A stretch of DNA of 64,000 nucleotides. Origin: Candidatus Eiseniibacteriota bacterium. GTDB taxonomy: Bacteria > Eisenbacteria > RBG-16-71-46. Both the position numbers and the translations under genes were made by a program. Positions 52,842 through 62,753 of the stretch are shown here, in pieces. Each line of letters starts with the position of its first letter. Positions within the stretch are counted from its first letter, which is position 1. Under the pieces are notes generated by a model, which saw only the letters and a program-made list of their open reading frames with translations, made no database searches and was not told where the DNA came from. The DNA lies in assembly GCA_963707915.1 (NCBI GenBank), contig OY970178.1, positions 3,094,103 to 3,158,102 on the forward strand. Reading direction: 5' to 3'.

Positions 52842-55817
52842 TCACTCCAGCAACGTCAACTTGCGCGTTCCGACCACACGGTCACCGAGCCGCATGCGCA
52901 CGAAGTAGAGCCCCGCCGCGAGTCTCCGGCCGCTGGCGTCCGCCGGTCGCCAGGACGCCGACCATTCGCCGGCACTGCGCGCGCCCGGCTCCACCGACGC
53001 CACCCGACGGCCAGCCATGTCGAGGACGTCGAACGCCACCTCGCCCTCGGCCCGCAACGCGTAGTCGATGCGCAGCGCGCCGCGGCCCGGGTTGGGCGAG
53101 ATGCCGCCTAACGCGTCGCGGTCGGGACGTGGCGTGCCTTCCACGGTGACGGTTCCGCTCCGCAGTCCGACCTCGAAGATGCCTGCGCCCCCGTCGCGCA
53201 CCACGACGACGCCGTACCAGCCGGTGACCGGCGCCGTGATCACCACGGACTGCTGACTCTCCACCAGCGCGCTCGCGCGACCCGTCCACAAGGGGCCGCC
53301 GGTGGGCGCGAAGACCAGCACCTTCGCATCGAGCCCGGGGCTGTGCGAGAACGTGAGGGTGTAGGTCTGGCCGGCGATCATGGGCGCATCCCAGCTCTCC
53401 ACCAGGAAGTCGCTCGTTGTGGTGCGCACGTTGTCGGGCGCGTCGAGCGTCAGCTCCTGATGGCCTGGGAAGTACTCCACCAGTCCCGCATCGGCGCCGG
53501 TCCAGCGGATCGCGGAAGCGTAGTAGGTGGCGAACGAGTTGAAGTTGAAGTCGCCGACCACGACGTCCGCCTCGGGGTACATGGTCGAGTTCGCCAGCAT
53601 CCCGCTCAGGCACGTGCCGATCGCTCCACCTGTCGGCGACGAGTAGGCGTAGAGACTCCAGTCGCTGCTGCTCGTCAGTCCGGCCGCGGCGATCGCCGTC
53701 CAGTAGGGCAACGCCGGCGCGAACGAGACGAACGCCCTTGGCTCGGTCGGCACGATGAACGCCGGCCCCGGCGTGAGCGACACGATCGGCGGGCAGGTGC
53801 GCACCCTGATCGTGTAGGCGTCCGCCGCTCCGTTCTCGTTGACGACAACGACTCCATAGAATCCGCTGCTCGGCGCCGTGTACGTGTGGGCGCCCGCGCC
53901 GCTCTCGAACTCGGCCATCTGGCGGCCTGCCCAGTACTCGTAGCCGGTCTCGTTGCGGAACAGCATGAGCGTGAGGGAGGCGGCCGGACCGCTCGAGAGT
54001 TCGAACTCGTAGGCCTGCCCGGCCTCCAGGTACACGTCCCAGCAACCCACGACGTCGTCGGGTCCGGTGGTGCGCTGCGTGACGTTGTTGTCATTGGCGA
54101 TGATCAGGTTCTCGCCGGAATCCCACTGCACGGCTGTCGACGACACGCTTTCGGCGCGGGGCTGCGCGGCGTTCAGATAGTAGGTGCCGGGCGTGTTGTA
54201 GTTGAAGTCGCCGACGACGACGGGTTGCCGCCCTGAGGGCACGCCATAGGACGTGGCAAAGGGCAGCGTGGTGCAGCTTGGCCACAGCGAACTGAGGTTG
54301 TCGCCGTTGAGGTTCAGCACCCATTCCGGGCTTTCGCCGCGCAATGCGGCGGCGGTCCAGTATCGGGCGGTCTGCGCGATCGAGAAGTACGCCGTCATCA
54401 CCATGCCGGTCGAGGCGGTAACGCCGGGCGAGAGCGCGGTCGGGAACGAGCAGTCGCCGAAGGTAACGCTGTAGTCGCCGGCAACCGCCGCATCGTTGAC
54501 GACCGCCACGCCGTACCATCCGCTCACCGGCGCGGTGTAGGTGGTCGGCCCCGCCCCGCCCCCTGGCGAGCTCAGGACGGCCGCGGACCTACCGGCAAAG
54601 TACGCGCCGCCGCCGCTGTTGGCGAACAACAGCAACGTCCGACCGATGGGGAGTGAGAGGATGAAGCGGTACGTGTGGCCGGCGTGCAAGTAGACGTCGT
54701 AGAAATCGGCGAGATCGCTGCCCGCCATGGACTCGAAATGCGGGAGGCTGTTGGTTTCGAGGATCCCCTGCGTACCGGTGAACTCGACTTCGCCCGCGGC
54801 CGCGCCGCTGAACAGGTGCGGGTAGACGAAGTACCAGCCCGCGGGTGAGAAGCTGAAGTCGCCCACCGTGAGGTCCACGCTGCCGGGGCCGAACCCCGAG
54901 GTGGCGAACAGCCCGTCGAAGCACGTCGGCGGACTGCCGCCGCTCGGCATGTCGTAGAGGCCGAGGTCCCAGTCTGCGGCCGAGGACCGGACCGCACATC
55001 CCATCCAGAACGGGTCCCTCGCCTCGAAGGCCAGGTTCCCGTTCGGCAGAGCGACGACAACCGGCGTCTGCGCCGTGAGGGCCGAGGGGATCGGGCAGGT
55101 CGAAGCCGTGACGCCCAGCTTGTACGAGAGGGCGGTGCCGGCGTCGTTGGTGAGCACGAGGCCGTAGTAACCGGTCGTTGTCGGCGTGAAGGTCGTTGTG
55201 CCGGTGACGTCGAAGTGGGCTGCGCTGCGGCCGGCCCAGTAAGTGCCGCCCGTGATGTTGGCGAACAACATCAGGTGGGCCCCCGACCAGTTCGTGGGGA
55301 AGAAGTCGAACGTGTAGGTCGTGCCCGTGGACATGTAGACGTCCCAGACGCGGATCAGGTCGGATGTGGCCATCGATCCGGAGATCGCGGAGCCGTTGGG
55401 TACGATGACGTCGGGGCCGTCGTCCCACTGCACGGTCGCATTCCCTCCGGAGTATCGGGACACCGAGGGGTAGTAGGTGCCCGGCGCGTTGTGGTTGAAA
55501 TCGCCGACGACGAAGTCCAGCACGCCGACTCCGGCGGTCGATGACGCCAGCAGGCCGGTGGGCGTGCAGGAAGGCTCTGGCGTGGTGCCCGAGTAGAGGA
55601 AGAGGTCCCAGTCCGCGCCCGGCTGCGGTCGCACCGCAACGGCAGTCCAGAAGGCCGAGGACTGCGCGAACTGACAGAGTGCCGGCGTGCTCGATACCGG
55701 CACCGCAGTGCCCGAGGTCAGCACTTGGGTCGGACATGCCGCACGCGCCGGGCCGGCGAGCGCGAGCGCAAGTACGACGGCGCTCGTCGTGTGGTGGAGA
55801 GCGATTCGGAGAGTCAT
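52842..55817 (-). CDS. large secreted protein of four tandem ~220-aa repeats with a C-terminal FlgD-Ig/T9SS-like sorting domain
   Basis: Signal peptide. Repeated blocks each containing VVGDFNxNxPGTYY and WD/YW motifs. C-terminus ...GLYFVRMRLGDRVVGTRKLTLLE. Confidence 0.7.
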   Translation of the reverse strand: MTLRIALHHTTSAVVLALALAGPARAACPTQVLTSGTAVPVSSTPALCQFAQSSAFWTAVAVRPQPGADWDLFLYSGTTPEPSCTPTGLLASSTAGVGVLDFVVGDFNHNAPGTYYPSVSRYSGGNATVQWDDGPDVIVPNGSAISGSMATSDLIRVWDVYMSTGTTYTFDFFPTNWSGAHLMLFANITGGTYWAGRSAAHFDVTGTTTFTPTTTGYYGLVLTNDAGTALSYKLGVTASTCPIPSALTAQTPVVVALPNGNLAFEARDPFWMGCAVRSSAADWDLGLYDMPSGGSPPTCFDGLFATSGFGPGSVDLTVGDFSFSPAGWYFVYPHLFSGAAAGEVEFTGTQGILETNSLPHFESMAGSDLADFYDVYLHAGHTYRFILSLPIGRTLLLFANSGGGAYFAGRSAAVLSSPGGGAGPTTYTAPVSGWYGVAVVNDAAVAGDYSVTFGDCSFPTALSPGVTASTGMVMTAYFSIAQTARYWTAAALRGESPEWVLNLNGDNLSSLWPSCTTLPFATSYGVPSGRQPVVVGDFNYNTPGTYYLNAAQPRAESVSSTAVQWDSGENLIIANDNNVTQRTTGPDDVVGCWDVYLEAGQAYEFELSSGPAASLTLMLFRNETGYEYWAGRQMAEFESGAGAHTYTAPSSGFYGVVVVNENGAADAYTIRVRTCPPIVSLTPGPAFIVPTEPRAFVSFAPALPYWTAIAAAGLTSSSDWSLYAYSSPTGGAIGTCLSGMLANSTMYPEADVVVGDFNFNSFATYYASAIRWTGADAGLVEYFPGHQELTLDAPDNVRTTTSDFLVESWDAPMIAGQTYTLTFSHSPGLDAKVLVFAPTGGPLWTGRASALVESQQSVVITAPVTGWYGVVVVRDGGAGIFEVGLRSGTVTVEGTPRPDRDALGGISPNPGRGALRIDYALRAEGEVAFDVLDMAGRRVASVEPGARSAGEWSASWRPADASGRRLAAGLYFVRMRLGDRVVGTRKLTLLE

Positions 55818-56434
55818 CGCGAGCCTCCCTTCGCGATGCGACGAAGCTCCGCCTGCTTCTCGAGCTGCGCGGGCGCCAGCGGCGTGGGCGCGGGGTTGAG
55901 GATCGCGCCGGCCGCCAGCCGGTTCTCCGATGCAGACGACGGCGCACTGCGCGCGTGCGCCCGCTTCTCGGTGATCGCCGCGGCCCGCTCCGCCCCCAGC
56001 TTCGGATCCAGCGGCCGTGACGTAACGAGCGGGCCGGGCCTGGTGCGTACGTCACCCGCGGGCGCAGCGCCCGCGGGCAGCCCGAGCATCGTGGCGCGAT
56101 TGCGCTGCTGCATCCTCAGCAGCGCGCCAGACTGCTTCTCGGCCTGCGAATTCTCCGTCGGCCGGTCGGGGCCCGGCGGGCGCGAGGTCGCGACCGGCGG
56201 GGCCTTCGCATCGCCGAGCGCGAACGCCGCTGCCGGCGCCGGAATCGCCGCGTGGATCGACTCCAGCTTGATGCGTTGAGCGGCCGTGGGCGTGGGCGAT
56301 AGCGAAGGCGGCAGTTCGGTGCGCACCTCGGCGGGCTTGCCGGTGGCGTCCGGCGAGGAGTCACCGGCGAGCGCCGGATCGGGTGAGGCGCACAACGCTA
56401 CCGCGCTGGCGAGAACCAGGAGAGCGCATTTCAT
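55814..56434 (-). CDS. secreted Pro/Ala-rich hypothetical protein
   Basis: Start MKCALLVLASAVALCASPDPALA with GGAGGAG upstream. Stop overlaps the start of the repeat protein. Confidence 0.5.
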   Translation of the reverse strand: MKCALLVLASAVALCASPDPALAGDSSPDATGKPAEVRTELPPSLSPTPTAAQRIKLESIHAAIPAPAAAFALGDAKAPPVATSRPPGPDRPTENSQAEKQSGALLRMQQRNRATMLGLPAGAAPAGDVRTRPGPLVTSRPLDPKLGAERAAAITEKRAHARSAPSSASENRLAAGAILNPAPTPLAPAQLEKQAELRRIAKGGSR

Positions 56435-56828
56435 GGGAGACTCCTCCGCGTCGAGGTGAAGAATCGGCATGGGGCTACCGCTCAAACGACCCGAGGCCGC
56501 GCGAATCACACGGGAAGTGCGGGCGCGAGGGATCCCCGAGGCGGGGCGGACGGGCCGTGCCGGGGGCCACCGGGAACGAGCTTGCGTCGGGCGAAGGGCC
56601 CGGCTTTACTTGCGCTCACGACGAGGGGTCTGCGTCCGCAAATGACCCCGAGCGGGGCCGGGACGTTCCGCCGGAGCCCGCGCCGGCGAACTCCCGAGCC
56701 GCGGCTGGAGGGTGGGTGTCGAATCCCGAAGGTCAACTCCACTGGGTCGGCGGGGCGCCCGCGGGCGCCGCGCCCCGTTGATCGACTTTTCCGTGGCCGC
56801 CACCCGGGCGGGGCCGGTCCGGCTGGGG

Positions 56829-59756
56829 ATGCTCCTCGCCGTGGTGTTGCTCGCGAGCGGCGCGGGTTCCACGCCGTCCGCGCCGGGGCGGGCCGCGGCG
56901 CCCGAGGTCGCCGGGCGCACGTCGCCGGGGGCTTCGGCCCCGGATCGCACTCCCGTCCAGCGCCGCACGCTCGCGCTCCTCGATTCGCTCTGGGCCGCGG
57001 GGAGGACCGATACGCTGTGGACGTGCGCGGAGGCCGCGTTGCGGACGGCCCGCGTCCGCGGCGACGCGAGGCTCACGCTCGATCTGCTGGCGACGCGCGG
57101 GCGGATGCGCGCGAGCCTCGGACTGATCGCGGAATCCGAGCCCGATCTACGAGCCGCCATCCGCATGGCGCGATCGGCCGGCGACGACTCGACGCTGCGG
57201 GCCAGCCTGCGATGGCTCGCCTATGCCCTGGATCGCGAGGGCAGGAACGACGAGGCGCTCCGCGCGTGGCAGCGTCTTCGCGCGCACTCGGAGCGGGCCG
57301 GCGACCTCGTGCACCAGGCGTGGGCCTGGTCGGGCATCGGCTTCCTGCGCTGGCAGTCGGGCGACCCCCGGGCCGCCGAGAGCGCCGACCTGCGGGCGCT
57401 GGGCCTCTTCCGCGCGGCGCACGACGAGCGCGGCGAGGCGTTCGTGCTGAACGCGCTGGGTGTGGTGGCGAACGCGCAGGGTGACTACCTCCGGGCCGAC
57501 CAGCGCTTCCGGCTCGCGGCCGCGAAGGCCGACCGTGCGCGGTGGACGTGGCTGGCGGCCGTTGCCTGGAACAACGTCGCGTCGCTCGAGCAATCGCTGG
57601 GCGATCCGGGGCGCGCCCGCACCCTGTACGTGAAGGCCGCCGAGTTGCATCGCCGCGCAGGTGACCTGGCGGAAGCCCTGGTGACGGGCGAGAACGTCGC
57701 GCGCTGCGACGCGGCGCTGGGCGCGTACGACGAGGCCGCCGCGGAGCTCGAGCTGCTCTTCCGGGAGTGTCGCGAGCACGGGATCGCACACCTGGAGGGC
57801 GGGCTTCGCAACGCGCTCGCCGACGTGCGCACCCGCCAGGGTCGCCCGCACGCGGCCGCCCGTCTCTATCGGGCGAACCTCGAGCGTGGAGCCTCGATCA
57901 CGGCGGATGCGCATCAGGAAGCGGTGCTCGGACTCGCCCGCACGCTTGCCGCCGTGGACAGCGTGCCGGCTGGCCTGGCGCTGATGCGCCGGGAGTCGAG
58001 CTGGATTCGCACGGCGGCGGACGCGATCGGTCGCGCCGAATGCGACGAGGAGCTGGGCGACTTGCTGCTGCGAGCAGGTCGCCCGCAGGAGGCGCTGCGG
58101 GTCCTGCTCTCCGCGGCCGCCGAAGCTCGCCGGCTGGGGGTCGGTGCGCCCCGCATCCGGGCTCTGGCCGGGGCCGCCCGGGCCGCGGAGCGTCTCGGCA
58201 TGCGCGATCGCGCGCTGGCGCTGCTCCGCGAGGCACTCGGCGTGTGGGAAGTGGAGCGGGGCCTGCCCGCCGATCCCGAGTGGCGTGAGGTGCGTGGTGT
58301 CGTTGCCGCGGACGTGGTTGCGAGCCTGGGAAGGCTGCTGCTCGTGCTCCCGCCCGACGCCTCCCCTGCCGAGCGCGCCCGGCACGCATTCGACGCGGTG
58401 CAGGCGTTCAAGGCGCGCACGTTGATGGAGCGCATGCTCGGCCCCGCGCGCGGCGACACGTCGTCACCCGCGGCGATCCCGACCACCTGCACGGAGCTAC
58501 AGCGTCGGGTGCTTCGCCCCGGGGAGCTGATGCTCGACTTCTACCTCGGGGCGGATTCCGGGCTGGTGTTCGTCGTGAGTCGCGAGGAGTGTCGCGCCTA
58601 CCGCATTCCGCCGCGGCGCGAACTCGAGTCGGTGCTCGCGCCGTACTCGCGAGCCGTCGCCGCGGCCGACGGGAGTGCGGAGCCCGCGAGGGGGCGCGAC
58701 GCCGGTCTGGCGCTCGCACATCGCAGCGTGCGCGAGTTGCTGCTCGGGCCGGCGCTCGATCGCATCGCGCGGAGCCGCAGCCTGATCGTGGTTCCCGACG
58801 GCATCCTCGATCGCCTAAGCTTCGCCGCGCTGCTCGACGACCCTTCGCCGGACCCGGCGGCGCGTCGGCTCGCGCTGCAGACCGTGCCGTCCGCGTCGAT
58901 CCTCGCCCGACTGCGAGCGACGCTGGCCGACCGCCCGGCGTGGGTGCGTGACGGGCCGTCGATCCTCGCTCTCGCCGGCGGCAGGGACGCGAGCGGCAAC
59001 CGACTCTCCGGCGCGCTGGGCGAAGTCCGGGACCTCGCCTCCGACTTCCGCCGCGTCTCCCTCGCGCTGCCCGGGACGCCGTCGCCCCCGCGGGCGGGTC
59101 CGGTGGACTCGATCCGCGCGGCGGAACTCCGCGGGACGGCGCTGCTCGAGCGCGCGGCGGGTTACGATGTGCTCCACTTCGCGGCGCACACCACGATCGA
59201 CGAGCAACGTCCCTGGCGATCCTCGCTCCGCCTCGGCGACGAGACCGACCCGGGGCGGCTACTGCGCCTGACCGGCTCGGCCATCGCGCGATCGACGCTC
59301 TCCGCGCGGCTGGTCGTCCTGTCGACCTGTCGTTCTGCCGACGGCCGGTTGCTGCCGGGGGAAGGCGTGCAGGGGCCGGCGGCGGCGTTCCTGGTCGCTG
59401 GGGTTCCGGCCGTGGTCGCGGCGCTGTGGCCGGTGCAGGACGCCGATGCCCGCTGGATGATGCGACGCCTCTACCTCCACCTGGCGGAGGGTGCGACCGT
59501 GGGCGAAGCGCTGTCGCTGGCCCAGTCGGACGCGCGCAGGACCGCCGAGCGATTCCGTTCGGCGCGCTGGGCGGGCTATGTCGTCGTCGGCGACGGCGAC
59601 TTGCGGATTCCGATTCGACGCAGGACGCTTGCGGAACGCTTCGGGCTCCCGGCCGCGCTCCTGCTGTTCGGATGCGCGGCGGTCCTCGGCTGGCTTCTCC
59701 GGCCACCTGACATCAAGAGGGAATGTGATTCCCGCGAACCGTCGGCGTTTCCATGA
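56829..59756 (+). CDS. TPR-repeat plus CHAT-domain (caspase-like protease) protein with a C-terminal membrane anchor
   Basis: Multiple TPR-like helices. C-terminal CHAT region with catalytic His/Cys (VLHFAAHT... / LVVLSTCRSA). Final hydrophobic helix LPAALLLFGCAAVLGWLL. Start alternatives up to 56712. Confidence 0.7.
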   Translation: MLLAVVLLASGAGSTPSAPGRAAAPEVAGRTSPGASAPDRTPVQRRTLALLDSLWAAGRTDTLWTCAEAALRTARVRGDARLTLDLLATRGRMRASLGLIAESEPDLRAAIRMARSAGDDSTLRASLRWLAYALDREGRNDEALRAWQRLRAHSERAGDLVHQAWAWSGIGFLRWQSGDPRAAESADLRALGLFRAAHDERGEAFVLNALGVVANAQGDYLRADQRFRLAAAKADRARWTWLAAVAWNNVASLEQSLGDPGRARTLYVKAAELHRRAGDLAEALVTGENVARCDAALGAYDEAAAELELLFRECREHGIAHLEGGLRNALADVRTRQGRPHAAARLYRANLERGASITADAHQEAVLGLARTLAAVDSVPAGLALMRRESSWIRTAADAIGRAECDEELGDLLLRAGRPQEALRVLLSAAAEARRLGVGAPRIRALAGAARAAERLGMRDRALALLREALGVWEVERGLPADPEWREVRGVVAADVVASLGRLLLVLPPDASPAERARHAFDAVQAFKARTLMERMLGPARGDTSSPAAIPTTCTELQRRVLRPGELMLDFYLGADSGLVFVVSREECRAYRIPPRRELESVLAPYSRAVAAADGSAEPARGRDAGLALAHRSVRELLLGPALDRIARSRSLIVVPDGILDRLSFAALLDDPSPDPAARRLALQTVPSASILARLRATLADRPAWVRDGPSILALAGGRDASGNRLSGALGEVRDLASDFRRVSLALPGTPSPPRAGPVDSIRAAELRGTALLERAAGYDVLHFAAHTTIDEQRPWRSSLRLGDETDPGRLLRLTGSAIARSTLSARLVVLSTCRSADGRLLPGEGVQGPAAAFLVAGVPAVVAALWPVQDADARWMMRRLYLHLAEGATVGEALSLAQSDARRTAERFRSARWAGYVVVGDGDLRIPIRRRTLAERFGLPAALLLFGCAAVLGWLLRPPDIKRECDSREPSAFP

Positions 59757-60361
59757 TGAAGCCGGACGCTGAGGATCCCCGAAGCGACGAGGATCTGGCG
59801 CTCCTGGCCGCGGGCTGCCCGGATAGTCCGGCCGGGAGGAAGGCGGCGTGCACGGTTCTCGAACGCTACGCACGGGTCGTCTACCGCTGGTGCTATTCCT
59901 ACGTCGGCAACGTCGAACAGGCCGAGGATCTCGCGCAGGACGTGCTGCTACGCGCCTACCGTCACCTCGGGGACTTCGAGGGATGGGGACGATTCTCGGC
60001 CTGGCTCTTCGTGATCACGCGCAACCTCTGCCTGGACGCGGTGCGGCGCGACGCGCGTCGGAAGCGCGAGGAGATCGAGTTGGATCGGCTCGCCGACCCC
60101 GCTCCGGGGCCGGAGGCCGAGTTGGCCGCGCGCCGGGAAGAGGAGCGCACGTTGTCGCTGATTCGAGAGCATCTGTCGGAGCAGGAGCAGGACGCGCTCT
60201 GGCTCCGCTGCTTCGAACGCATGCCCCTCGACGCCATCACCCGTGTGCTCGGTATCACGCAACGCAGTGGAGCGCGCGCGGTGCTCCAGAACGCCCGGCG
60301 CAAGCTCCGCGCGGCGTTGGGCGATGCGCATCCGCTGGCCCGGGAGGGGGACGATGACTGA
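59753..60361 (+). CDS. ECF (group IV) RNA polymerase sigma-70 factor
   Basis: Region 2 (YRWCYSYVGNVEQAEDLAQDV...) and region 4 HTH. ATGA overlap with the CHAT gene stop. Confidence 0.85.
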   Translation: MMKPDAEDPRSDEDLALLAAGCPDSPAGRKAACTVLERYARVVYRWCYSYVGNVEQAEDLAQDVLLRAYRHLGDFEGWGRFSAWLFVITRNLCLDAVRRDARRKREEIELDRLADPAPGPEAELAARREEERTLSLIREHLSEQEQDALWLRCFERMPLDAITRVLGITQRSGARAVLQNARRKLRAALGDAHPLAREGDDD

Positions 60362-61175
60362 ACGATGCCCGACGCTGCGCGAGCTCCTCGCGCTGGTGGA
60401 CCGCGTGCCCGGTGGCGACGCCGCCCACGGCGTGAGCGGCGCCCCGAGCCAGCCGCCGCCGATCCCCACCGACGCGGGCGCCTCCAACCCGCCGCTCCCG
60501 GATGACACCTGGGCGCACGTCCGCAGTTGTCCGCGGTGCCGGAGTCTGCTGGCGGCCTACCACGAGTTCGAGTCGCCGCAGGTCCGAGATCGCTGCGAGG
60601 GCGAGCCCGAGGCAGTGGCGCGCCTGGGCGCATTCCTCGAGTCGATGATCGTCGGGCCCGGCGCCGCCCCGACCGTGGCCGCGATCCCCGGGGCCCGACG
60701 GCTTGCGGGTGGCAGGGCGGGGGAAGCCACGCGGGTCGGGGAGATCTTCCGTCTACTCACCGGGTCCGGCCGCCTGGTTCCCGTGGCCGGCGCGGCAGCC
60801 ATCGTCGCGGCGGTGTTCCTGTTGGTGCGCGGGAACGTGGATACGGCTCTGCGCTCCACCGTGCTTCGCGAGCAGCCGGCCGAATCCGCAGTCGGCAGTA
60901 TCGTCGTCTTCCCACCGCGCCCGGTTGCGGGACGCGGGCTCGAGTTGCGCTGGAGGCGCGGGGGACCCGACGACACCTACCGGGTCCGCCTGCTCGATTC
61001 CGGGATGCGCGAGGTCGGGTGTGTGGAGGCGGGACGTGAGACGCTTCTGGTACTCGCCACGTCGGCGCTTACCGGCCCGCGCCTCCCGGTCTTCTGGCAG
61101 GTGGAAGCGCTGCGCGAGGGCGATCGCGTCGGCGATTCTCCTCCCGGCGAGCTGCCTCTGCTGCGTGGGCGGTAG
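60354..61175 (+). CDS. zinc-finger (zf-HC2) anti-sigma factor with a single TM helix
   Basis: HVRSCPRCRSLL (H-x3-C-x2-C) near the N-terminus. TM segment LVPVAGAAAIVAAVFLLV. 8-nt overlap with the sigma-factor gene. Confidence 0.7.
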   Translation: MTERCPTLRELLALVDRVPGGDAAHGVSGAPSQPPPIPTDAGASNPPLPDDTWAHVRSCPRCRSLLAAYHEFESPQVRDRCEGEPEAVARLGAFLESMIVGPGAAPTVAAIPGARRLAGGRAGEATRVGEIFRLLTGSGRLVPVAGAAAIVAAVFLLVRGNVDTALRSTVLREQPAESAVGSIVVFPPRPVAGRGLELRWRRGGPDDTYRVRLLDSGMREVGCVEAGRETLLVLATSALTGPRLPVFWQVEALREGDRVGDSPPGELPLLRGR

Positions 61176-61277
61176 CTCGAGTGGCGCGAGTCCCGCCGCC
61201 CCCCCTCGACCGAGCCGCCGGAGCCGTAGCCGGCGCGCGGCGCTCTGGGTGGCGTGGTTCAGCGGGGACTGAGAACT

Positions 61278-61349
61278 TGGTGCGCCGCCTAGGACTTGAA
61301 CCTAGAACCTACTGATCAAGAGACTCTGATCGCCGCCAGCACGCAGCGG
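61278..61349 (-). other. degenerate tRNA-like remnant: intact T-arm, 3' acceptor strand and encoded CCA, with a collapsed D-arm (possible integration-site scar)
   Basis: Minus-strand reading ...CTAGG TTCAAGT CCTAG GCGGCGC A CCA (canonical T-loop, 5-bp T-stem, 7-nt acceptor strand, discriminator, CCA). The 5' strand CCGCTGC pairs 6/7 with the acceptor. Only 18 nt precede a GATCA/TGATC stem with an 8-nt loop, so no proper D-arm or anticodon loop. Confidence 0.35.
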
Positions 61350-61583
61350 TTGTCGCGCAACGCACTGCGAAGAACGGCAAGAAGTTGGCCCGGGAACGAA
61401 CGGGCATCTGCGGGCATCCTCGGGCACTTGAAGGGGCACGAAACGGGGAAGGTTTCCCCGCTCGGATGGAATGGGGATCGCCATGTTCGCCTCGGCGTGC
61501 CCGGGTGGCGTTTCCGCAGAAATTCATGAAATGCAGTGGACATGCCACTGGATTTCTCTGCCCGCCTGGGCTAGCCTTCGGGC

Positions 61584-62753
61584 ATGTTCCGGCGCTTCCT
61601 CGACCTCCCCGCCCTTGCTGCCGAGCGGAGTTTCTTCCTGCTCGGGCCTCGCCAGACGGGCAAGTCCACGCTGTTGCGGGCCTCCTTTCCGGATGCGCTG
61701 TTTCTCGACTTGCTGGACGCGCAGACGTTCCGCTCGTTGGCGGTGGCCCCGAACCTGATCGGTGAGCGCGCGCGAGCATTGAAGGGGCGTCACCGCGTTG
61801 TCATCGTCGATGAGATCCAGAAGTTGCCCGAGCTGCTTGACGAGATTCACCGGCTCATGGAACTCGACAAGTCCCTGCGCTTCATCCTCACCGGGAGCAG
61901 CACGAGGAAGCTCCGCACTCGCGGGCGAAACCTGCTCGGTGGCAGAGCCGGGCTGGTGCGGATGCATCCGATCGCATACCCGGAGCTGGGGACTGCCAGC
62001 CGACCTCATTCCTGGGCGGACATGCTTCGATGGGGCGGGCTTCCCTCGGTGCTCGGTTCGAAGACGTCGAAGGACGATCTCCAGGCCTACGTGGGCCTCT
62101 ATCTCCAGGAGGAGATCAGGGCCGAGGGGTTGGCGCGCTCCGTTCCGAACTTCAGTCGGTTCCTCGAGACCGCGGCCGCCATGAACGGCGAGACCCTGAA
62201 CTACACGAAACTGGGCAACGATGCACAGCTCTCACCGCGGACCGTGCGGGACTACTTCCAGATCCTGCAGGACACGTTGGTGGGCGATCTGCTTCCTCCC
62301 TTCCAGCACACCCGCACGCGCAAGGCCGTTGCCACGGAGAAGTTCTACTTCTTCGACATCGGGATGACGAACGCTCTCGTCGAGCGTTGGGCCGTTTCGC
62401 CGCGCACGCCGGAATACGGTCGTCTGCTCGAGCACCTGGTCGAGCGCGAGATCAGGGCCTCGATGGACTACCTCAGAAACGACCGTCATCTGTTCTTCTG
62501 GCGCACGCTGTCGCGGCTGGAAGTCGACTTCGTCGTCGCGGAAGGGCAGAAGCCCGTGGTGGCGATCGAGGTGAAGGCTTCGCGGTCGGTCTCCCAGCAG
62601 GACCTCAAAGGCCTCCGGGCGTTCGCCGAAGACTGGCCGCGGGTTCGCAAGGTCGTGGTGTCGCTGGAGCCCCACCTACGCACGACGGAGGATGGCGTGG
62701 AGATCGTGCCGGTGGAGGAGTTCCTGGCTCGGCTCTGGGGTAAGGCGATTTGA
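61584..62753 (+). CDS. AAA-superfamily ATPase with a DUF4143 C-terminal domain (COG1373-like)
   Basis: Walker A LLGPRQTGKSTLL, Walker B VVIVDEIQK, C-terminal DUF4143-like region. Confidence 0.8.
   Translation: MFRRFLDLPALAAERSFFLLGPRQTGKSTLLRASFPDALFLDLLDAQTFRSLAVAPNLIGERARALKGRHRVVIVDEIQKLPELLDEIHRLMELDKSLRFILTGSSTRKLRTRGRNLLGGRAGLVRMHPIAYPELGTASRPHSWADMLRWGGLPSVLGSKTSKDDLQAYVGLYLQEEIRAEGLARSVPNFSRFLETAAAMNGETLNYTKLGNDAQLSPRTVRDYFQILQDTLVGDLLPPFQHTRTRKAVATEKFYFFDIGMTNALVERWAVSPRTPEYGRLLEHLVEREIRASMDYLRNDRHLFFWRTLSRLEVDFVVAEGQKPVVAIEVKASRSVSQQDLKGLRAFAEDWPRVRKVVVSLEPHLRTTEDGVEIVPVEEFLARLWGKAI

Follow-up and report, generated by a model that had tools for sequence, protein, structure and literature searches.

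We analyzed a stretch of 64,000 nucleotides (nt) from a Candidatus Eiseniibacteriota genome (contig OY970178.1), hereafter the window, in which three consecutive genes encode a protein with tetratricopeptide repeats (TPR) and a caspase-like CHAT domain, a sigma factor of the extracytoplasmic function (ECF) type and a zinc-type anti-sigma factor. This set of genes, which we consider here as a candidate envelope-signaling module, is laid out in the window as follows:

56793..59756, forward strand: gene of the TPR-CHAT protein (open reading frame (ORF) and public gene call, Pfam, AlphaFold2 and Foldseek).
59753..60361, forward strand: gene of the ECF sigma factor, 202 amino acids (aa) (Pfam and NCBIfam).
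60354..61175, forward strand: gene of the single-pass zinc-type anti-sigma factor, 273 aa (3′ of the sigma gene, its constant place in the module loci described below).

The public gene call starts the CHAT gene at GTG 56793 (987 aa), while a start at ATG 56829 would give 975 aa. The GTG is the likelier start, because the hydrophobic N-terminus then gains a charged n-region, which is missing from the product of the ATG; residue numbers of the CHAT protein are counted here from ATG 56829. The CHAT stop codon TGA (59754-59756) and the sigma ATG (59753) overlap in the tetranucleotide ATGA at 59753-59756, and the sigma gene, with its stop codon at 60359-60361, overlaps the anti-sigma gene, starting at ATG 60354, by 8 nt. 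Both overlaps had been described in an initial annotation of this DNA and agree with the ORF coordinates, although the expression "translationally fused" used there was the wrong term for genes that overlap without any fusion. The same annotation spoke of an operon, but an ECF-type promoter-like motif, described below, lies between the body of the CHAT gene and the sigma ATG. A generic promoter and terminator scan of positions 56300-61600 gave no sigma-70-type promoter and no convincing terminator.

In the first protein of the module, Pfam recognized the CHAT family (PF12770) at aa 635-922, with an E-value of 3.6e-41 and 141.9 bits (cutoff 24) over model positions 8-289 of 289, and TPR_12 with an E-value of 7.7e-20, besides matches to TPR_2 and TPR_8. 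The following parts were delimited:

56793..56870, forward strand: predicted Sec-type signal peptide (VAATRAGPVRLGMLLAVVLLASGAGS), a hydrophobic N-terminus followed by small residues.
56952..58448, forward strand: TPR superhelix of about 12 helix pairs, aa 42-540 (AlphaFold2 secondary structure and Pfam TPR matches).
58731..59594, forward strand: CHAT caspase-like domain, aa 635-922 (Pfam).
59187-59189 and 59328-59330, forward strand: catalytic codons of His787 and Cys834, respectively (alignment invariance).
59643..59699, forward strand: C-terminal membrane anchor, aa 939-957, followed by a short tail (hydropathy 2.08; model helix 934-956).

H783, H787 and C834 were invariant in 18/18 aligned homologues and in 97/97 unique sequences, with a spacing of 47 residues between H787 and C834; the His-Cys dyad presupposed by the initial annotation, which had called the protein a protease, is thus present on careful alignment. 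The AlphaFold2 model of the protein (predicted local distance difference test (pLDDT) 83, predicted TM-score (pTM) 0.76) contains a mixed alpha/beta CHAT domain. When this model was compared with the PDB using Foldseek, the first match was DdvA (8rw5, E-value 8.5e-14; 8rot), followed by human and yeast separase and by Csx29. These matches had E-values of 1e-13 to 1e-11 and a probability of 1.00, with low global TM-scores (0.3-0.4) that are expected because the superhelices are long and flexible. As modeled, the protein has the separase/craspase-type TPR-CHAT fold. A PDB sequence and profile search with the CHAT protein returned TPR proteins only, and no DdvA, Csx29 or separase.

A signal-peptide-like start was present in 14 of the 18 aligned homologues, namely in all those with an intact predicted N-terminus, the other four being N-terminally short, and nearly all of the 18 have a hydrophobic helix at the C-terminus with an Arg-rich tail behind it. 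The TPR-CHAT protein is predicted from these sequence features to be exported and then kept at the outer surface of the cytoplasmic membrane through its C-terminal anchor, with the catalytic domain ending about 14 residues before the anchor.

The third protein of the module gave zero matches in Pfam and NCBIfam even at E≤10. A word-indexed homologue search gave 5-8 anti-sigma proteins, and the structure model was built on a 9-sequence alignment; by exhaustive profile search, the family comprises 3618 representative clusters at E≤1e-3 and 1072 at ≤1e-10, mostly of 210-280 aa. Its parts in the window are:

60366..60539, forward strand: predicted cytoplasmic sigma-binding domain with the zinc motif C5...H55-x3-C59-x2-C62 (conservation over 209 sequences).
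60771..60830, forward strand: transmembrane helix, aa 140-159 (hydropathy 2.32; model helix 144-159).
60831..60893, forward strand: juxtamembrane linker, aa 160-180, containing V-L-R172-E (pLDDT <50 at 160-164 and 166-179).
60867-60869, forward strand: codon of Arg172, the candidate site-1 cleavage site.
60894..61148, forward strand: predicted extracytoplasmic fn3-like beta-sandwich, aa 181-265 (pLDDT ~90).

The zinc ligands are kept by most of 209 family members (C5 in 194, H55 in 193, C59 and C62 in 207 each) and conform to the H/C-x(n)-H-x3-C-x2-C motif of class I zinc-binding anti-sigma (ZAS) proteins; 21 residues separate the first Cys from the His in the aligned homologues lacking an insertion. 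The model has helices at residues 8-16, 50-58, 60-73 and 85-100, where pLDDT is 50-78. The Cys/His/Cys/Cys motif and the one hydrophobic helix agree with the assignment of this gene to a zinc anti-sigma factor in the initial annotation. Between C5 and H55, about 28 additional residues, rich in Pro, are inserted in the window protein (GGDAAHGVSGAPSQPPPIPTDAGASNPPLPDD; anti-sigma aa 19-50, window 60408-60503). None of the 53 aligned locus homologues has this insertion; L027, one of these, carries 4 extra residues in that position.

On the other side of the membrane, R172, embedded in the motif [VI][LV]R[GED], is kept by 209/209 sequences, and R172 and W200 are the two absolutely invariant residues of the outer part among the 209 aligned members. 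R172 sits in the sole stretch of low confidence that the AlphaFold2 model has between the membrane helix and the fn3 domain. For the outer domain, Foldseek returned fn3 and cytokine-receptor domains, weakly (E-value ~2e-3), and the fn3 profile matches were weak too; the PDB profile search with the anti-sigma factor gave marginal fn3 matches alone, and no N-terminal domain of DdvA.

The sigma factor encoded between them matched Sigma70_r2 of Pfam (2.9e-20, 72 bits, cutoff 24) and, at 19 bits, below the Pfam cutoff, Sigma70_r4, and it scored 94 bits against NCBIfam TIGR02937 (sigma70-ECF; cutoff 42.9). In the PDB search its closest solved relatives were the ECF sigma factors SigE and SigW. With 202 aa, and with sigma2 and sigma4 only, it has the composition of an ECF (group IV) sigma factor, proteins of about 200 aa. 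The sigma factors of the module loci scored 240-295 bits against one hidden Markov model (HMM) and therefore form one clade. All of them are extended at the N-terminus, where about 30 aa that include a conserved s-D-E-e-L motif stand ahead of region 2 (window 59753-59850); N-terminal extensions modulate some ECF sigma factors.

The linkage of the three genes was followed in two independent surveys. In the first, anchored on CHAT, a 9-sequence CHAT alignment and one genome per species gave 75 loci, 62 of them assessable, which were scored with two HMMs, one for sigma and one for anti-sigma, derived from these same loci. All three genes were on one strand in 53 of the 62 (the module loci), in the order CHAT-sigma-anti-sigma in 29 and sigma-anti-sigma-CHAT in 24; the anti-sigma gene was always 3′ of the sigma gene, and the anti-sigma factors were homologous over their full length. 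The hosts are almost entirely metagenome-assembled genomes (MAGs) of Eisenbacteria, Krumholzibacteriota and Latescibacterota, some of them submitted as Fibrobacteraceae. In the reverse survey, where a sigma alignment gave 80 metagenome loci, a CHAT gene adjoined the sigma gene, with all three genes on one strand, in 46 of the 53 assessable ones (~87%), 34 times upstream and 12 times downstream, and one further locus had CHAT 234 nt upstream. The association of the three genes that had been noted in the window is, therefore, strongly conserved in other genomes, and it extends over hundreds of uncultured bacteria. Since the linkage survives a change of gene order, it argues for function, and we rejected chance adjacency as its explanation, given that it holds in both directions, in two gene orders and in both surveys.

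Single loci illustrate the range. Next to the full-length orthologues P0004, P0006 and P0017 (33-52% identical), the CHAT gene is followed by a sigma gene of 202-204 aa and then by a gene of 216-245 aa. The locus of P0016 (L005) has a sigma gene and a 263-aa gene upstream of CHAT, and was counted as lacking the module, its sigma factor scoring 29 bits against the module profile; the locus of P0011 has neither a sigma nor an anti-sigma gene. Several CHAT copies often occur in one genome (L009/L020/L024/L033, L015/L017/L056 and L029/L055/L067, each group in one MAG). The presence, in these single genomes, of three to four or more paralogous modules with the same promoter consensus raises the question of how cross-talk between the sigma factors is avoided. 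In a further locus, an intact CHAT gene has two short ORF fragments with matches to the anti-sigma profile closely 5′ of it (L021:5385-5879) and no sigma gene; this locus looks like a module in decay.

One locus joins two of the partners in a single chain. In L034:5827-9108 (Latescibacterota chromosome CP070763.1), the CHAT ORF continues in frame into the anti-sigma linker and the fn3-like domain, in the order signal peptide, TPR, CHAT, helix 1 (938-956), RWRRGARP, helix 2 (964-981), ILRG linker and fn3-like domain. The locus, which lacks the sigma gene and the zinc domain, is the sole fusion seen, and it may be a decayed locus or a working single-chain variant. Its two-helix topology fits an orientation in which CHAT and the outer domain of the anti-sigma factor face the same compartment.

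The initial annotation had suggested that the CHAT protein could act on the anti-sigma factor as an analogue of a site-1 protease. This idea is the best-supported reading of the module, on evidence that is circumstantial (the predicted same-side topology, the invariant Arg, the L034 fusion and the fold match to DdvA), with cleavage itself inferred from it. Clan CD relatives of CHAT, namely separase, metacaspases and gingipain R, cut after Arg, and R172 is for this reason the obvious candidate for the cleaved residue. The geometry would fit as well, because the catalytic domain and R172 each lie about 13-14 residues from the membrane.

The same observations bear on a second explanation, in which CHAT controls the anti-sigma factor without cutting it, as a co-receptor or as a protector of the linker (as RseB shields RseA), or else has another substrate, for example itself. 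Linkage and a shared compartment would suit binding as well as cleavage, the large TPR scaffold is a protein-binding module, and dyad mutants of DdvA behaved like the wild type under the conditions tested (PMC11506125). However, a His-Cys dyad that never varies among 97 divergent sequences (~30-50% identity) argues for selection on catalysis, and an invariant Arg within a flexible linker has the appearance expected of a protease site; we consider control without cutting unlikely, at roughly one chance in a handful, and keep to the reading of CHAT as the protease of the anti-sigma factor.

Upstream of the sigma gene we found a conserved two-block motif, which occurs twice in the window:

59724..59751, forward strand: ECF-type promoter-like motif TGTGATT-N14-GCGTTTC, with boxes at 59724-59730 and 59745-59751 and the sigma ATG 1 nt later.
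56484..56510, reverse strand: second copy, TGTGATT-N14-TCGTTT, facing a divergent operon (position weight matrix (PWM) scan and exact pattern).

A dyad search in the DNA 5′ of each module's first gene gave a weak signal, and the motif became clear once the regions were anchored on the sigma start. About 45 of 51 module loci, representing either gene order, then showed the consensus TGTGATTYY-N12-GYGTCTC 5′ of the sigma gene; in most loci the sigma ATG follows 2-5 nt beyond the motif, and the flanking proteins are about 35% identical. Among 70 loci of a metagenome set independent of these, 31 had the motif upstream of sigma at ≥16 bits, and many more had degenerate versions. Over 985 kb of loci, the PWM matched 90 times, against 11 in shuffled sequence, and the pattern TGTGATT-N14-KCGTTT, defined after seeing the data, matched 2 times in the 64-kb window against 0.00 expected.

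In the loci with CHAT first, the motif lies inside the 3′ end of the CHAT gene, and 14 of 23 loci with the CHAT-sigma order stop CHAT at the TGA within the TGTGATT box, about 25 nt 5′ of the sigma ATG. In the window, the CHAT frame crosses the box differently and runs ten codons further, and it is this reading through the box that creates the ATGA overlap, which is peculiar to the window genome; translational coupling through ATGA was thus rejected as a conserved trait. Since the box holds the CHAT stop codon in 14/23 loci and is read in a different frame in the window, its conservation is at the DNA level. The TGA of the box, serving as CHAT stop codon and as part of the presumed -35 element, is seen for instance in the arrangement-A loci L002, L009, L010, L012, L028, L055 and L069, and in four sigma-anti-sigma-CHAT loci (L015, L026, L027 and L077) it is the second copy of the motif that likewise holds the CHAT stop.

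The two-block layout and the spacing suggest an ECF promoter, from which the sigma mRNA would be leaderless or nearly so, transcribed from a promoter whose -35 box doubles as the CHAT stop codon. Because this conserved motif lies between the coding body of CHAT and the sigma ATG, sigma and anti-sigma probably have an autoregulated promoter of their own. The proposal in the initial annotation that CHAT could be an effector released by sigma activation is weakened by this arrangement, as CHAT lies upstream of the sigma-type promoter and, in the gene order of the window, no such motif precedes it.

The second copy of the motif in the window faces two genes on the reverse strand:

55814..56434, reverse strand: likely sigma target 1, a 206-aa secreted or lipoprotein-like protein with the N-terminus MKCALLVLASAVALCASP (public gene call).
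52842..55817, reverse strand: likely sigma target 2, a 991-aa secreted protein with a C-terminal FlgD_ig domain (Pfam 4.6e-8, aa 923-975).

The 206-aa gene has a GGAGGAG ribosome-binding site 6 nt before its ATG at 56434, and its stop overlaps the start of the 991-aa gene; its protein had no match in Pfam. This divergent pair is a likely target operon of the sigma factor, and the same divergent layout is found in L028 and L029. In the 991-aa protein, of which FlgD_ig is the sole Pfam match, about four repeats of a module of some 230 aa can be recognized by eye, with the recurring strings YWTA.A.R, DWDL.LY, VGDFN.N.PGTYY and GWYGVVVVN, and a tandem-repeat scan found no such repeat at the DNA level.

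Across the loci, the motif matches that do not belong to a sigma gene lie mostly just 3′ of the module, after the anti-sigma gene or after or overlapping the CHAT stop, depending on gene order, and most of these copies precede a large ORF of about 160-1700 aa. The string CCAAG(A/G)GGA recurs downstream of the -10 block in second-motif copies (L036, L043, L050, L056, L010 and L038) and before no sigma gene; it may represent the start-site region with a ribosome-binding site, or a further regulatory element. Of eight downstream ORFs scanned, seven end in FlgD_ig or Por_Secre_tail, a type-IX-like sorting domain, and their passenger domains vary (FG-GAP repeats, Kelch/beta-helix, CARDB or none recognized).

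This recurring cargo opens another explanation, in which CHAT is a maturation or quality-control protease for the type-IX-like-sorted proteins and its linkage to sigma reflects the shared regulation of one secretion unit. Besides the large ORF that stands behind the second motif in most module loci, at least two loci point in this direction, L004 and L008, where the sigma pair is absent but CHAT is retained together with the motif and, downstream of it, a large ORF (in L004 that of an FlgD_ig secreted protein), and from which it follows that CHAT may have a cargo-related role; moreover PorU, the peptidase of type-IX sorting domains, is also a clan CD cysteine protease. On the other hand, no motif precedes CHAT in the gene order of the window, so that its co-induction with the cargo is not obvious, the passenger domains vary while CHAT and the anti-sigma factor stay conserved, L034 joins CHAT to the outer part of the anti-sigma factor and not to cargo, and the reciprocal linkage of sigma to CHAT reaches ~87%. 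We regard a role of CHAT in cargo maturation as improbable to the same degree as control without cutting. The explanations are not mutually exclusive, a cargo-sensing feedback loop being possible, and the module may sense its own cargo, with the TPR or the fn3 part reading the secretion load.

Downstream of the anti-sigma gene, a 3′ fragment of a tRNA (T-arm and acceptor end, ...CTAGGTTCAAGTCCTAGGCGGCGCACCA) lies on the reverse strand at window 61279-61338 and lacks the 5′ half; ARAGORN reported no tRNA anywhere in the window, and tRNA, Rfam and tandem-repeat scans of the region after the anti-sigma gene gave nothing complete. The fragment could be the attachment-site remnant of an integrated element just after the module. 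Just beyond it, at 61584-62753 on the forward strand, is the gene of an AAA_14/DUF4143 ATPase, which matches the PADLOC candidate defence family PDC-S01 with 4.1e-63.

An anti-phage or abortive-infection system, with CHAT as toxic effector, was also considered. CHAT domains do occur in defence systems, a defence island is under the control of DdvA/DdvS, a PADLOC search with the CHAT protein gave a weak match to BovA (9e-6) and the PDC-S01-like ATPase is close by. The BovA match, however, covers the catalytic core only, and sigma and anti-sigma had no PADLOC match; the neighbours in related loci are secreted-protein genes and not defence genes, with no cas genes among them; the PDC-S01 gene is separated from the module by the tRNA fragment, and other loci do not keep it in that place; and the predicted extracytoplasmic location, together with several paralogues per genome, would fit envelope signaling better. 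A defence function is thus very improbable, far more so than the two explanations above.

We return to the reading in which CHAT cuts the anti-sigma factor, and propose, with about even chances of being right, that the module is an envelope-signaling, split (two-polypeptide) counterpart of DdvA/DdvS in which CHAT cuts the anti-sigma linker. The zinc-type single-pass anti-sigma factor would hold the ECF sigma factor at the inner membrane. CHAT would become active on a signal for which the TPR superhelix, the fn3 domain or both are the probable sensors and, acting in trans as a site-1 protease, would then cut the linker, plausibly after R172, about 13 residues outside the membrane, and the remaining stub of ~13 residues would be the substrate of an RseP-type site-2 protease, with release of sigma. 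Free sigma would transcribe its own sigma and anti-sigma genes, leaderless or nearly so, from the TGTGATT-N14-GCGTCTC promoter, and would also drive the neighbouring operon of a large secreted protein with a type-IX-like sorting domain, which in the window would be the divergent 206-aa and 991-aa pair. In this scheme we infer the cleavage by CHAT and its site, the site-2 step, the function of the promoter and the signal.

Several observations weigh against the proposed scheme. Cleavage dependent on CHAT has never been observed even for DdvA (PMC11506125). Among the gene calls of the window and the related loci, no site-2 protease adjoins the module, although no search aimed at site-2 proteases was made. 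Nine assessable loci have CHAT without this sigma/anti-sigma pair, including the two described above that keep the motif and the large ORF. Arg-rich flanks occur on both sides of the CHAT membrane helix, so that the predicted topology is carried mainly by the signal-peptide-like N-terminus and by the single L034 fusion. The low confidence of the anti-sigma linker derives from a 9-sequence alignment, and R172 could be a structural or contact residue instead of a cleavage site.

A wider and more tentative version of the proposal, to which we give somewhat less than even chances, is that a membrane-tethered periplasmic caspase-like CHAT protein is the dedicated trans-acting site-1 protease of the zinc anti-sigma factor, cutting after R172, 13 residues out, in a unit that has multiplied to several paralogues per genome in Eisenbacteria, Krumholzibacteriota and Latescibacterota, each of them wired to one gene of a large, type-IX-like-sorted secreted protein. 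If true, this would be a previously undescribed class of cell-surface signaling. The analysis also gives a function-level label to an unnamed anti-sigma family (>1000 representative clusters at E≤1e-10), and to an ECF clade and a TPR-CHAT subfamily that abound in poorly known phyla, and the promoter motif could be used for predicting sigma targets in metagenomes.

Among the related known systems is regulated intramembrane proteolysis, in its classical forms DegS/RseA/RseP of Escherichia coli and PrsW/RsiW/RasP of Bacillus subtilis. The module resembles these in the single-pass anti-sigma factor that would hold an ECF sigma factor, in the outside site-1 cut proposed to license a site-2 protease and in the autoregulation proposed for sigma. 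It differs in the site-1 enzyme, which the module itself would supply in the form of a cysteine protease, caspase-like and equipped with a TPR sensor, whereas the classical enzymes are serine proteases or metalloproteases encoded elsewhere. The statement of the initial annotation that this is not a textbook ECF module is fair, but there are precedents in DdvA/DdvS (PMC11506125) and in Csx29/Csx30 with the CASP sigma factor (PMC10028731).

A third group with CHAT in its surroundings is ECF54, for which genes of CHAT, subtilase and carboxypeptidase proteins in the genomic context led to a proposal of proteolytic control (PMC8999054; PMC7826278). The published descriptions place ECF54 in actinobacteria and give it no anti-sigma factor (PMC8999054; PMC7826278); going by this description, we rejected membership of the module in ECF54, as it has a conserved anti-sigma factor and belongs to a different lineage. 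In the literature searched, ECF classification supplements excepted, there was no description of the split module or of the anti-sigma family, and the sigma clade may already have an ECF group number.

In craspase, the type III-E CRISPR system, the TPR-CHAT protein Csx29 cleaves Csx30, the inhibitor of the ECF-like CASP sigma factor (PMC10028731). The likeness lies in a TPR-CHAT protein that cuts a sigma inhibitor in trans and frees an autoregulating ECF-type sigma factor, the cut being putative here. Craspase, by contrast, is cytoplasmic, is activated by RNA via Cas7-11 and is encoded in CRISPR loci, and Csx30 is not a zinc-type membrane anti-sigma factor. Neither in the window nor in five related loci did the neighbouring genes match cas-related Pfam families, and membership in craspase was rejected on the lack of cas genes nearby and on the export and membrane signals of the CHAT protein.

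DdvA of Myxococcus xanthus is a transmembrane anti-sigma factor with a periplasmic TPR-CHAT part, whose partner is the ECF sigma factor DdvS (PMC11506125; PDB 8rot, 8rw5); its authors proposed a site-1 cut of the linker by CHAT followed by RseP, and showed the RseP-dependent loss of truncated DdvA (PMC11506125). The module described here shares with DdvA a TPR-CHAT part outside the inner membrane (predicted in our case) paired with an ECF sigma factor, a zinc-type cytoplasmic sigma-binding domain (here likewise predicted) with Cys/His/Cys/Cys ligands, a dyad spacing of 47 residues (H787-C834) that compares with 45 in DdvA (H862-C907), and the same proposed logic, in which CHAT clips the juxtamembrane linker and RseP acts afterwards. 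The relationship was seen by fold alone, with no sequence-level match, and the differences are considerable. Protease and anti-sigma factor are encoded separately throughout, in the window as in each of the 53 module loci, the protease having an N-terminal signal peptide and a C-terminal anchor and the anti-sigma factor an fn3-like domain of its own, so the cut would be made in trans between different proteins, whereas in DdvA it would be made between the halves of a dimer. The likely targets are genes of large secreted proteins instead of a CBASS/CRISPR island, and the hosts are Eisenbacteria, Krumholzibacteriota and Latescibacterota instead of Myxococcota. Membership in the DdvA family was rejected, because the module is not one polypeptide and the L034 fusion lacks the sigma-binding domain.

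By analogy, the module very plausibly works as DdvA is proposed to work. DdvA is the sole characterized CHAT anti-sigma factor, and one reason why the site-1 step has escaped observation there is that a single dimeric protein serves as both enzyme and substrate and responds to a signal not yet known (PMC11506125). With enzyme and presumed substrate split, and with a candidate site at V-L-R172-E, the idea of CHAT as a site-1 protease becomes directly testable, and the module would be a third, envelope-located case, beside DdvA and craspase, of a caspase-like protease that frees an ECF sigma factor.

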